The notes under the pieces are model-generated. The model did no database searches, was not told the origin of the DNA, and was given only the letters and a program-made list of their open reading frames with translations. This document shows positions 49,584 to 50,123 of a DNA stretch of 64,000 bases, in pieces. The stretch's first letter is position 1; every line of letters starts with the position of its first letter. Made by a program: the position numbers and the translations under genes. Origin of the DNA: Gammaproteobacteria bacterium. GTDB taxonomy: Bacteria > Pseudomonadota > Gammaproteobacteria > JAKDMP01. The stretch is taken from the NCBI GenBank assembly GCA_027018875.1, contig JALUYA010000007.1, positions 23,607 to 87,606 on the forward strand. The letters run 5' to 3'.

Positions 49584-49887
49584 TTGCAGTGAATATGAGG
49601 CGTCCGGATTACCGAGGAGCCCCGTGGGGGCCGGGTTCCCGAAGCCGGTGACAATGTAGCCGGCTCAAGGAGAAAATCGCTCTCGTGCCGAGCGCTGATC
49701 CCTTCGTGTACATCGTCGTTCAGGTGGCTGAATAGCCATTGGTGCAACCCCTTCAGTAATCAAGGCAACATCATGACCCTGGGCCTACAGAAAAGGCTGG
49801 AAGTTGACAATCCTAGATTTTGAGGGTGTAATATAAGTTATGAATTCGGTGGTTTTCACTCTTCGCTCAGCCCGGTGCATTGCTTGC

Positions 49888-49959
49888 ATGATGTGCATGT
49901 GTATTCCGCAACATGCCATGCGGGTTATGGAGAGTGGGCCGGTGATAAGCACCGGATAG
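49888..49959 (+). CDS. Candidate Met/Cys-rich leader peptide MMCMCIPQHAMRVMESGPVISTG (23 aa) in the metY leader
   Basis: ATG-dense stretch read directly. In-frame Met at codons 1, 2, 4, 11, 14 and Cys at codons 3, 5. Lies about 30 nt upstream of a terminator hairpin. No strong Shine-Dalgarno sequence. Confidence 0.4.
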   Translation: MMCMCIPQHAMRVMESGPVISTG

Positions 49960-49987
49960 GCTGAAAAGCCAGCTACACGAAGTCAGA

Positions 49988-50020
49988 AACCCGCGATGGC
50001 GCAGCCGTTGCGGGTTTTTT
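49988..50020 (+). terminator. Intrinsic terminator/attenuator: hairpin with arms CCCGC (49990-49994) and GCGGG (50010-50014), then TTTTTT (50015-50020)
   Basis: Read directly. Sits 100 nt upstream of the metY start rather than after a gene, hence a likely attenuator. Confidence 0.6.
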
Positions 50021-50123
50021 GTTGGTGTCATTCCGCAACGTCGGCTCCACGCATTTGAATTGTCCGGCTCTAGCGAGCCGGGTTTTGGCGTGAAATGATT
50101 TTACTTGAACAGGAGCAGACGAA

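Follow-up and report, generated by a model that had tools for sequence, protein, structure and literature searches.

Introduction

The trpL, hisL, leuL, thrL, ilvL/ivbL and pheL attenuators each carry in the 5' leader a short open reading frame (ORF) with codons for the product of the pathway. To our knowledge, methionine is a conspicuous absentee from this textbook list of leader-peptide attenuators, and we know of no regulator of metY in many Proteobacteria.

A search for a metY regulator in β-proteobacteria failed (Leyn et al. 2014, PMC4239095), and SAM-I and SAM-II/SAM_alpha riboswitches control metY/metX (PMC4239095). Leaders with cysteine codons include the mycobacterial polycysteine leaderless short ORFs (bioRxiv 10.1101/834739), Cys leader peptides that were predicted in front of cys/cbs genes in Actinobacteria (PMC1262725) and uORFC-8-2, a candidate cysS attenuator of Rhodobacterales with tandem Cys codons and a terminator stem (PMC8632094). 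For the Staphylococcus aureus metICFE-mdh operon, a methionine T-box is described (PMC3771891).

Here we analyze the leader of a metY-metX-hom operon in a 64-kb stretch of gammaproteobacterial DNA (the window, 64,000 nucleotides). An earlier, sequence-only reading had proposed that a Met/Cys leader peptide is coupled to a terminator and an antiterminator upstream of metY, and this proposal was supported by the riboswitch scan, by conservation and by folding. We consider it quite probable that a ribosome-mediated leader-peptide transcription attenuator, sensing charged tRNA-Met and tRNA-Cys, accounts for the feature. Most likely, the Met/Cys ORF and the terminator would turn metY-metX-hom on when the charged Met/Cys tRNAs are scarce. 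Computation established the anatomy of the element, its three alternative pairings with their energies and its conservation across lineages.

Results

The locus, the promoter and the leader ORF

The gap between ygfX and metY was 540 bp long, as the sequence-only reading had it. The genes follow in the order sdhA, sdhB, sdhE, a CptA/YgfX-family ORF (these neighbours were confirmed) and then metY-metX-hom, in which start and stop codons overlap and whose products lead to homocysteine and methionine. No MetY with more than 84% identity to that of the window was found in the GTDB species genomes, the JGI metagenomes or a set of 5.8 billion proteins. The features of this part of the window are as follows.

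49584..50123, gap between ygfX and metY
50124..53601, + strand, operon under the proposed control: metY 50124-51443, metX 51440-52525, hom 52513-53601
49804..49809, + strand, leader promoter, -35 box TTGACA, invariant in the alignment of 8 gammaproteobacterial leaders
49827..49834, + strand, -10 region: TGTAAT at 49827-32 after a 17-nt spacer, overlapping TAATAT at 49829-34
49840..49959, + strand, leader ORF of 39 codons and TAG: MNSVVFTLRSARCIACMMCMCIPQHAMRVMESGPVISTG
49876..49902, + strand, regulatory codon run C-I-A-C-M-M-C-M-C, in which 4 of 9 codons are Cys and 3 are Met

The leader ORF is absent from the gene calls of the source contig. The mini-ORF first noticed at 49888-49959 has the sequence given for it (MMCMCIPQHAMRVMESGPVISTG), but it is the 3' part of the 39-codon ORF, whose frame opens upstream at ATG 49840. 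Its codon run aligns with MAMCMCM of the relatives, and extra Met codons occur at 49918 and 49927. The extreme ATG density claimed for the leader was borne out: with 6 ATG per 45 nt, it is the densest ATG cluster and the unique maximum of the 64-kb window. The Met/Cys score that we used was reached by only one other ORF on both strands of the window, located inside metX.

The leader promoter was missed by the consensus promoter scan, because its rules called for a spacer of no more than 18 nt or for A as the second base of the -10 box; it was recovered by comparison with relatives. The geometry in the window is the same as theirs (TTGACA, 30 nt, ATG). The sequence-only reading was right about the presence of TTGACA, which lies at 49804-09 and not at 49803-08, and for its -10 box TGTAAT at 49827-32 is the better reading. 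No Shine-Dalgarno (SD) sequence precedes the ATG at 49840, which is located 7 nt past the -10 box, a geometry conserved across the relatives. Since the ATG follows a TTGACA-17-TGTAAT promoter so closely and lacks an SD, the leader ORF is probably leaderless, a prediction made from promoter geometry. Transcription would then start at or next to the A of this ATG. Leaderless initiation in Gammaproteobacteria is generally inefficient, which counts against the attenuator reading.

Alternative pairings of the leader RNA

The leader was strongly structured in comparison with dinucleotide shuffles (z = -4.4), and its 3' part forms an intrinsic terminator. The numbering of the pairing regions used below is given in this list.

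49869..49902, + strand, region 1, 5' half of the 1:2 hairpin, predicted to sequester region 2 when no ribosome is stalled
49905..49926, + strand, region 2, antiterminator strand: UCCGCAAC (49905-12) and GCCAUGCGGGUU (49915-26)
49985..50020, + strand, intrinsic terminator: 5' arm 49985-50000 (region 3), loop GCA, 3' arm 50004-50019 (region 4), U6 50015-50020
49845..49981, + strand, long-range helices of 49845-65 with 49928-81 and small hairpins 49939-55 and 49959-70, in the window only

The earlier terminator call, with CCCGC (49990-94) pairing with GCGGG (50010-14) in front of T6 (50015-20), had the right location; the stem, however, has 15-16 bp instead of 5 bp. Its energy was -22.7 to -25.2 kcal/mol, and the helix showed compensatory changes across 16 leaders.

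Region 2, directly following the Met/Cys codons, is complementary to both arms of the terminator. In the minimum free energy (MFE) fold it is engaged upstream by two helices, 49869-74 with 49921-26 and 49891-49902 with 49908-19 (local hairpin, -21.7 kcal/mol). The three alternative pairings were close in energy: -21.7 kcal/mol for 1:2, -21.9 for 2:3 and -25.2 for 3:4. The main antiterminator contact is formed by 49915-26 with the terminator 5' arm (49987-50000) at -20 to -22 kcal/mol. The pairing on which the sequence-only reading had built its antiterminator, CCGCAAC (49906-12) with GUUGCGG of the 3' arm (50007-13), exists at these positions with -13 kcal/mol and extends the main contact rather than making it. 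The folding check proposed for this pairing gave a positive answer, as it was part of the MFE antiterminator with the ribosome at the Met codons. The 2:3 duplex had z = -3.8 and was reached by 0 of 200 shuffles.

Folding of the whole leader with masked ribosome footprints left the terminator in the MFE structure because pairing across the ribosome was permitted. In the stall models we therefore folded the RNA 3' of the ribosome alone, as well as the nascent RNA. With the RNA free from 49904 onward, the full-length MFE fold was the antiterminator, in which region 2 pairs with 49988-50001 and 50007-14. When a ribosome was placed in a stall on the Met/Cys codons, the nascent RNA had 12 of the 14 nt of the 5' arm already paired upstream, compared to 0 of 14 when the leader was untranslated or the ribosome stood at the stop codon. 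At full length and for most stall positions, the terminator-containing fold was equal in stability to the antiterminator fold or slightly less stable; given this near-equality, the switch must be kinetic.

The stop codon lies 31 nt past region 2, so that a terminating ribosome leaves region 2 unmasked and the 1:2 hairpin has to re-form. This requirement and the full-length stabilities weigh against the attenuator reading. In the window, the only place where they were seen, the long-range helices and small hairpins fold the untranslated leader into a single domain next to the terminator.

These structures suggest the following course of events. Transcription would start from the near-consensus promoter at or beside the A of ATG 49840, giving a leaderless leader mRNA on which a ribosome translates the 39-codon ORF. 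If Met-tRNA or Cys-tRNA is scarce, the ribosome would stall within C-M-M-C-M-C (49885-49902). Covering region 1, it would keep region 2 (49905-26) single-stranded and able to capture the terminator 5' arm (49987-50000) once this is transcribed; with the terminator blocked, RNA polymerase would continue into metY-metX-hom. If both tRNAs are charged, the ribosome would reach the TAG at 49957, region 1 would recapture region 2 (in the 1:2 hairpin along with the long-range helices), and the terminator of 15-16 bp with its U6 would form, ending transcription near 50020. Termination would also be the default with no translation.

On the other hand, methionine starvation should lower fMet-tRNA and with it initiation on the leader, which in the window model favors termination; this is the wrong direction for such a switch and counts against the attenuator reading.

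The segment between the terminator and metY

Three features were identified downstream of the terminator.

50030..50048, + strand, post-terminator module: repeat ATTCCGCAAC at 50030-39, then the anti-SD GUC.GCUCC at 50040-48
50064..50088, + strand, second hairpin CCGGCUC-UAGC-GAGCCGG with GUUUUGG, a weak terminator-like element in the metY 5' UTR
50112..50120, + strand, metY Shine-Dalgarno region GGAGCAGAC, with a predicted pairing to 50040-48

The repeat is present twice, at 49903-12 and 50030-39, and its second copy is complementary to the terminator 3' arm. It had been reported as an 11-mer; 10 bases are shared, but the first copy begins with T and not with C. Relatives have a conserved CGUCC(C/U)GCAAC at the position of the post-terminator module, and their SD (GGACGA) pairs with UCGUCC. 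The repeat, overlapping an anti-SD, may couple readthrough to translation of metY.

The second hairpin was found where the sequence-only reading had placed it (50064-81, followed by GTTTTGG at 50082-88). As a candidate for a second conserved terminator it was rejected: relatives keep the hairpin, not the U-tract.

Conservation of the leader among metY loci

To call a leader ORF in other genomes we demanded at least 5 Met+Cys within 8 residues. Such an ORF was present in 38 of 147 regions upstream of metY compared to 6 of 3672 control windows, and most of the control matches were real leaders located farther upstream. Further gammaproteobacterial relatives, including Wenzhouxiangella sp. XN79A, had the ORF in 7 out of 7 cases, although the upstream neighbour genes differ. 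The comparison with orthologues, which had been named as a check, thus showed both the Met/Cys-rich ORF and the terminator to be conserved in metY leaders. Most of the ORF carriers had a terminator with a matching antiterminator segment; in most loci a strong terminator stood 20-35 nt past the leader stop codon and a TTGACA-like -35 box preceded the ORF.

In 25 of 25 loci, and with 11 different N-terminal lengths, an open frame led from the first ATG after the -10 box into the Met/Cys run; the distance between this ATG and the -10 box varied from 6 to 14 nt. The order of M and C varied (MCMCM, CMCCCMCM, MMCMA, MCLCCMMM and others), TGC and TGT alternated in the run, and flanking residues were unconserved. 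Together, the variable order, the TGC/TGT alternation and the preserved frame argue for a coding sequence rather than an RNA motif.

The composition of the run also bears on what a translated ORF would report. The ORF could control the terminator in response to general translation capacity, or to one amino acid (cysteine, or sulfur status), and not to methionine specifically. Some members are almost pure Cys runs, e.g. MHMSMCCCCCCCC and MQCCCCMCCMP, Actinobacteria are already known for Cys-codon leaders, and methionine starvation impairs initiation as well. Yet other members are Met-only or Met-dominated (NMMMPMAHM, GMMMGRMSMFMA, MMCMMMM), the window and its relatives interleave Met and Cys codons, the operon serves the synthesis of homocysteine and methionine, and SAM is what the partner riboswitch detects. 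We regard this explanation as quite unlikely.

Another possibility, which we consider very unlikely, is that the ORF encodes a functional small peptide, either metal- or redox-active or a metabolite-sensing arrest peptide (cf. TnaC, SpeFL and plant CGS1/MTO1). The near invariance of MAMCMCMAL among the closest relatives could be taken in its favor, as could the ability of Met/Cys-rich peptides to bind metals and the existence of a nascent-peptide sensor in plant methionine synthesis. Beyond the closest group, however, composition is conserved and the peptide sequence is not: the peptides differ in length, the residues beside the run are not kept, and several lineages have the run right at the C-terminus. 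Most loci have a terminator after the ORF and an antiterminator placed for a stall at the run. A biosynthetic operon needs a stall to mean scarcity, which codon starvation fits better than ligand-induced arrest. Moreover, 7 leader peptides had no NCBIfam/Pfam match at E <= 10, and none of 10 leader peptides had an identical entry in a set of 15 billion called proteins.

Returning to the attenuator, we found that antiterminator complementarity exceeded that of dinucleotide shuffles (p <= 0.05) in 20 of 32 loci, the segment usually beginning 5-16 nt after the codon run. The post-run segment paired with its own 5' arm at -15.2 kcal/mol compared to -11.9 kcal/mol with the arms of other loci (permutation p about 5e-5). 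In 39 loci, upstream pairing took up a fraction of 0.75 of the 5' arm when the ribosome was stalled and 0.45 when it stood at the stop codon (Wilcoxon p 8e-7). A clean in-silico switch was seen in only 19 of these 39, and in many loci the 5' arm also paired upstream in the unstalled models. Column-wise covariation of the 2:3 helix in 8 close leaders showed no excess over shuffles; like the limited number of clean switches, this counts against the attenuator reading. Across more distant leaders region 2 was out of register and could not be aligned, for which reason the alignment-free pairing tests were used instead.

In summary of the attenuator anatomy, an ORF in the 5' leader, a cluster of pathway codons, a terminator, an antiterminator dependent on ribosome position and conservation in orthologues were all found; at the family level, the evidence for the antiterminator is significant but partial.

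Known RNA families and the SAM-I riboswitch

The covariance-model check proposed by the sequence-only reading showed that no riboswitch or leader model matches the region. Rfam searches of the whole window at the gathering score and of the leader at E <= 10 gave chance-level matches only, driven by the terminator; the best, His_leader, had 19.6 bits versus a gathering score of 49 and rests on the terminator. The window matched none of the SAM/SAH riboswitches (SAM-I, II, IV, V, VI, SAM-SAH and SAH) even at E <= 10, and it had no T-box match either. The method works, since the identical search detected SAM-I in other loci at 59-84 bits. In 23 loci SAM-I stood in tandem with the Met/Cys element, and this tandem would be an independent functional link for the element.

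We also considered that the leader might act as an RNA that binds a ligand or protein, e.g. an undescribed SAM, homocysteine or other riboswitch, in which the AUG/UGY stretch is an RNA motif and the ORF is incidental. The leader is indeed strongly structured and placed where SAM riboswitches sit in other lineages, and SAM-I is used by many metY loci. Apart from the lack of an Rfam match at threshold, no conserved block resembles a junction or binding core: these blocks are the CCCGC/GCGGG repeats, the Met/Cys codons, the ATG and the promoter. The number of M and C codons varies between lineages just as their order does, with the frame preserved in each of the 25 loci, and the ORF persists in loci that already have a SAM-I aptamer. 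We find this explanation highly improbable.

In Bacteroidota, Ignavibacteriota and related groups the Met/Cys cassette lies in series with SAM-I riboswitches, and it appears to have been transferred with metY between phyla. We give equal weight to belief and doubt that the window is a member of an unrecognised multi-phylum class, namely leaderless Met/Cys leader-peptide attenuators of metY (often with metX and hom), a cassette moving with metY and having SAM-I in series.

Discussion

If the attenuator reading is true, it would supply the methionine case absent from classical attenuation. AUG sense codons would be usable as regulatory codons though methionine is also needed for initiation, and leaderless attenuators would exist outside Actinobacteria. 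Nature would have combined a tRNA-charging sensor with a SAM riboswitch in series, and expression would integrate Met-tRNA charging, Cys-tRNA charging and the SAM level. There are practical consequences as well. Before about one in four of the sampled metY genes, a regulatory ORF so far unannotated could be marked by a simple rule; the element could serve in engineering as a compact part responsive to Met/Cys; and Wenzhouxiangella sp. XN79A is a cultured carrier usable for testing.

Comparison with known regulatory systems

Our literature searches found Cys leaders, SAM riboswitches and the Met T-box, and did not find a Met leader peptide; this agrees with the statement of the sequence-only reading that methionine lies outside the established attenuator classes.

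The SAM riboswitches occupy the same niche as the Met/Cys leader, a premature terminator in the metY leader, and SAM-I is adjacent to it in the 23 tandem loci. They differ in that an aptamer senses SAM directly and translation is not involved; the window has no SAM aptamer. In S. aureus, the T-box (PMC3771891) likewise links methionyl-tRNA charging to a terminator in a met operon leader, with the difference that the RNA binds uncharged tRNA directly and no leader peptide takes part.

The mycobacterial and actinobacterial Cys leaders resemble the window in having a short ORF, leaderless there and predicted to be so here, with sulfur-amino-acid codons that sense, or in the window would sense, tRNA charging, and in a location upstream of sulfur-amino-acid genes. 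Their SD-sequestering helix is predicted in the window too, though the core of the element lies elsewhere. They use consecutive Cys codons only and act on translation by SD occlusion, without an intrinsic terminator; in the window, Cys is interleaved with prominent Met, and a strong terminator with an antiterminator makes up the core. Similarly, uORFC-8-2 has an upstream ORF with regulatory codons followed by a terminator, and ribosome-mediated attenuation was proposed for it. It differs in having two Cys and no Met, in its tRNA synthetase gene target and in its restriction to one order, and it is not reported as leaderless.

In architecture the element is close to the classical proteobacterial attenuators, which also have four RNA regions with exclusive 1:2, 2:3 and 3:4 pairings, and an intrinsic terminator before the first structural gene with termination as the default. 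Unlike theirs, the regulatory codons of the window are interleaved Met and Cys and the target is metY (direct sulfhydrylation). The ORF appears leaderless, without a Shine-Dalgarno sequence, and the Met/Cys element spans many phyla beyond Proteobacteria. We found no prior description of this element, and we regard it as a variant of classical ribosome-mediated attenuation.

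Position and probable reading of the leader ORF

Analysis of the sequence and folding models indicates that metY in the window is probably controlled by attenuation. The sequence-only reading had proposed a Met/Cys leader-peptide transcription attenuator ahead of metY-metX-hom, and this mechanism turned out to be essentially right. All the sequence features it described are present, with minor corrections of coordinates; the mini-ORF placed at 49888 belongs to a longer in-frame ORF, of which it forms the 3' part and which begins at ATG 49840.

Features of the metY region (window positions)
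48848-49123: sdhE ORF, directly 3' of sdhAB, overlapping the next ORF by 59 nt
49065-49583: CptA/YgfX-family ORF (PF07254)
49584-50123: 540-bp gap between the CptA/YgfX-family ORF and metY
49804-49809: -35 box TTGACA, 17 nt before the -10 box
49827-49832: -10 box TGTAAT, 7 nt before ATG 49840
49840 (ATG) to 49957-49959 (TAG): leader ORF, 39 residues, MNSVVFTLRSARCIACMMCMCIPQHAMRVMESGPVISTG
49869-49926: 1:2 hairpin, -21.7 kcal/mol; 5' half Met/Cys codons, 3' half region 2 (antiterminator strand)
49915-49926 with 49987-50000: 2:3 pairing of region 2 with the terminator 5' arm, -21.9 kcal/mol
49985-50019: terminator (3:4 pairing), 15-16 bp stem and U6 tract, -25.2 kcal/mol
50030-50039: second copy of ATTCCGCAAC, complementary to the terminator 3' arm
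50040-50048: anti-SD GUC.GCUCC, directly after the repeat, predicted to pair with the metY Shine-Dalgarno region
50112-50120: metY Shine-Dalgarno region, GGAGCAGAC
50124-51443: metY
51440-52525: metX, overlapping metY and hom
52401-52442: 13-codon ORF inside metX
52513-53601: hom, overlapping metX

The sdhE and CptA/YgfX-family ORFs, which follow sdhA and sdhB, are the SdhE/YgfX pair. We assign no feature to the 220 nt from the ygfX stop codon to the leader promoter (49584-49803). The minus strand there has a predicted terminator-like hairpin at 49694-49678 and no gene that it could serve.

The leader ORF is not called as a gene on the source contig. Its stretch holds the highest ATG density of the window (6 in 45 nt, unique across 64 kb). 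The only other window ORF to reach the Met/Cys score threshold is the 13-codon ORF inside metX, which has no promoter or terminator context and was taken as a chance match.

No Shine-Dalgarno sequence precedes ATG 49840. The distance from the -35 box to the ATG is 30 nt in the window and in six of seven aligned relatives; the metY locus L166 also has 30 nt (spacer 18 + gap 6). Across the family we took the first ATG in any frame located 3-18 nt after the -10 box. In 25/25 loci this ATG and the Met/Cys run shared one open frame, with 11 different N-terminal lengths (6-19 codons) before the run. This is a strong argument, from sequence comparison, for translation of the ORF and for an mRNA that, at the start site we infer, would be leaderless or nearly so.

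Conservation across metY loci

We fetched 160 loci encoding relatives of the window MetY (80 from GTDB species genomes and 80 from metagenome contigs), 147 of which had about 250 nt or more of sequence ahead of metY. An ATG-initiated ORF with at least 5 Met+Cys in 8 residues occurred in 38/147 metY upstream regions, compared to 6/3672 control windows from the same loci; most of the control matches were real leaders located further upstream, next to SAM-I riboswitches. The carriers include Gammaproteobacteria, Thermoanaerobaculia, Gemmatimonadota, Eisenbacteria, Acidimicrobiia, Ignavibacteria, Balneolales, Saprospiraceae, Chitinophagales and Thermonema. The window lies on an ENA metagenome contig, and the nearest MetY was 84% identical to its own. 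Seven extra gammaproteobacterial relatives found via a protein collection, including the cultured Wenzhouxiangella sp. XN79A, all had the leader (peptides such as MNSLETTCPLTTHAASMAMCMCMALPATAGGGVLS and MEIVRPTTRSCTMCMCMCLRAKAADSCTVVI). The genes upstream of the leader differ in all seven; therefore, the leader cassette appears to move together with metY-metX.

From locus to locus, the Met and Cys codons differ greatly in order and number (MCMCM, CMCCCMCM, MMCMA, MCLCCMMM, CCMCCCMC, Met-only runs), and the residues flanking the run show no conservation. Such a pattern would be expected of regulatory codons rather than of an RNA motif or a folded peptide.

Near-identical terminators (ACCCGC..CGGC-loop-GCCG..GCGGGU) were seen at 49985-50020 of the window and in the metY loci L001, L017, L019, L020, L022, L043, L051, L102 and L107. 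Their hosts are Gammaproteobacteria, Eisenbacteria, Thermoanaerobaculia, Acidimicrobiia and one unassigned metagenome contig. Together with MetY identities of 72-84%, the similarity suggests horizontal transfer of the whole leader-metY cassette.

Alternative RNA structures

Folding of the free leader is very stable (z = -4.4) and yields one domain (49841-49985) abutting the terminator. Three mutually exclusive pairings (1:2, 2:3 and 3:4) were found. With M18 (49891) in the A site of a stalled ribosome, the RNA is free from 49904 on, and the full leader has an antiterminator as its minimum-free-energy fold. In this fold the CCGCAAC/GUUGCGG pairing, first noticed in the sequence-only reading, appears exactly, as 49905-49912 with 50007-50014. 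When the stall is placed at a later codon, the full-length terminator fold is equally stable. In nascent RNA, before the 3' arm is made, 12/14 nt of the 5' arm are paired upstream when the ribosome is stalled, versus 0/14 when the leader is untranslated or the ribosome is at the stop codon. As modeled, this is the logic of a classical kinetic attenuator.

Most loci have a strong intrinsic terminator, 20-35 nt past the stop codon of the leader ORF. Its helix has 7 pairs with compensatory changes, above shuffled and slid controls. We tested how well RNA lying 3' of the stalled ribosome can pair with the terminator 5' arm: the best duplex beat 200 dinucleotide shuffles at p <= 0.05 in 20/32 loci (median z = -2.1), and the antiterminator segment usually started 5-16 nt after the codon run. 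Pairing of a post-run segment was stronger with the 5' arm of the same locus (-15.2 kcal/mol) than with arms taken from other loci (-11.9 kcal/mol; permutation p about 5e-5). Matched changes include GCCAU with AUGGC in the window, GCCGG with CCGGC in the nearest relatives, and GCGGA with UCCGC in Eisenbacteria. Column-wise covariation of 2:3 among 8 close leaders was not above shuffles. Over 39 loci, upstream pairing took up a fraction of 0.75 of the 5' arm with the ribosome stalled, 0.45 at the stop codon (Wilcoxon p = 8e-7) and 0.55 untranslated (p = 5e-5); with this crude folding model, a clean switch appeared in only 19/39 loci.

In Thermoanaerobaculia-type leaders (L013 799-1025, L085 68-291, L087, L004) the ORF ends immediately behind the run (...MCMGMCMCMR stop). 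There is one more hairpin between ORF and terminator, and ~57 nt separate the run from the antiterminator segment. Such leaders may represent a relay form of the architecture.

A conserved module (50029-50121) spans from the terminator to metY, with two hairpins between the anti-SD and the metY Shine-Dalgarno region. The corresponding CGUCC(C/U)GCAAC of the relatives pairs with their SD, GGACGA, and anti-SD and SD covary. With the 5' arm held in the antiterminator, the 3' arm would be free and could pair with the repeat at 50030-50039, and readthrough may thus be coupled to SD unmasking.

Tandem arrangement with SAM-I riboswitches

The Met/Cys leader and a SAM-I riboswitch form a tandem in 23 loci, in two orders. 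Fifteen loci (L029, L030, L033, L042, L057, L059, L063, L076, L079, L104, L123, L128, L134, L135, L153) have the promoter, Met/Cys leader ORF, terminator, SAM-I (60-84 bits), second terminator and gene. Expression from such serial attenuators would need low tRNA charging and low SAM together. Between SAM-I and metY, L057 (2362-2856) and L123 (1894-2367) carry a gene for a CoA-binding protein (PF13380, about 160 aa), which is therefore co-regulated with metY in these lineages.

The other eight loci have SAM-I first, then the leader and metY. The leader ATG lies about 8-10 nt past the aptamer in L028 (3626-3860), L137 (2152-2384), L149 (273-503) and L052, overlaps the aptamer in L151, and is about 120-170 nt downstream in L068, L099 and L144. 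Among the members screened, no strong terminator followed the leader, except for a moderate one in L151 (-14.8 kcal/mol); the leader ORF itself may serve as expression platform for the riboswitch. In either order, a pair of serial sensors on one mRNA fits a regulatory role for the ORF.

Comparison with known systems

Rfam 15 gave no match at the gathering score anywhere in the window, which by this search excludes known RNA families, and only chance-level matches at E <= 10 on the leader. The best was His_leader (19.6 bits against a threshold of 49), aligned essentially on the terminator. This negative result is informative because the same search detected SAM-I at 59-84 bits in other metY loci. 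Seven representative leader peptides had no NCBIfam or Pfam match at E <= 10, and none of ten was present among 15 billion called proteins. The window leader falls in none of these curated families.

In the full-text literature covered by our searches, we found no methionine leader peptide, only related systems. In Actinobacteria, Cys leader peptides without terminators are predicted, and no RNA element was seen in methionine operons (PMC1262725). Polycysteine leaderless sORFs act on translation in mycobacteria (bioRxiv 10.1101/834739), and a cysS uORF is a candidate attenuator in Rhodobacterales (PMC8632094). SAM riboswitches and a separate metXZ RNA element have been described, with β-proteobacterial metY lacking a known regulator (PMC4239095). 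A Met T-box is a further related system.

The window leader would work like a classical four-region attenuator and has every sequence-level property of one. Methionine starvation would also lower initiation in such a system. It differs from known attenuators in its interleaved Met and Cys regulatory codons, its apparently leaderless initiation, its target metY, and the wide phyletic spread and coupling to SAM-I of Met/Cys leaders.
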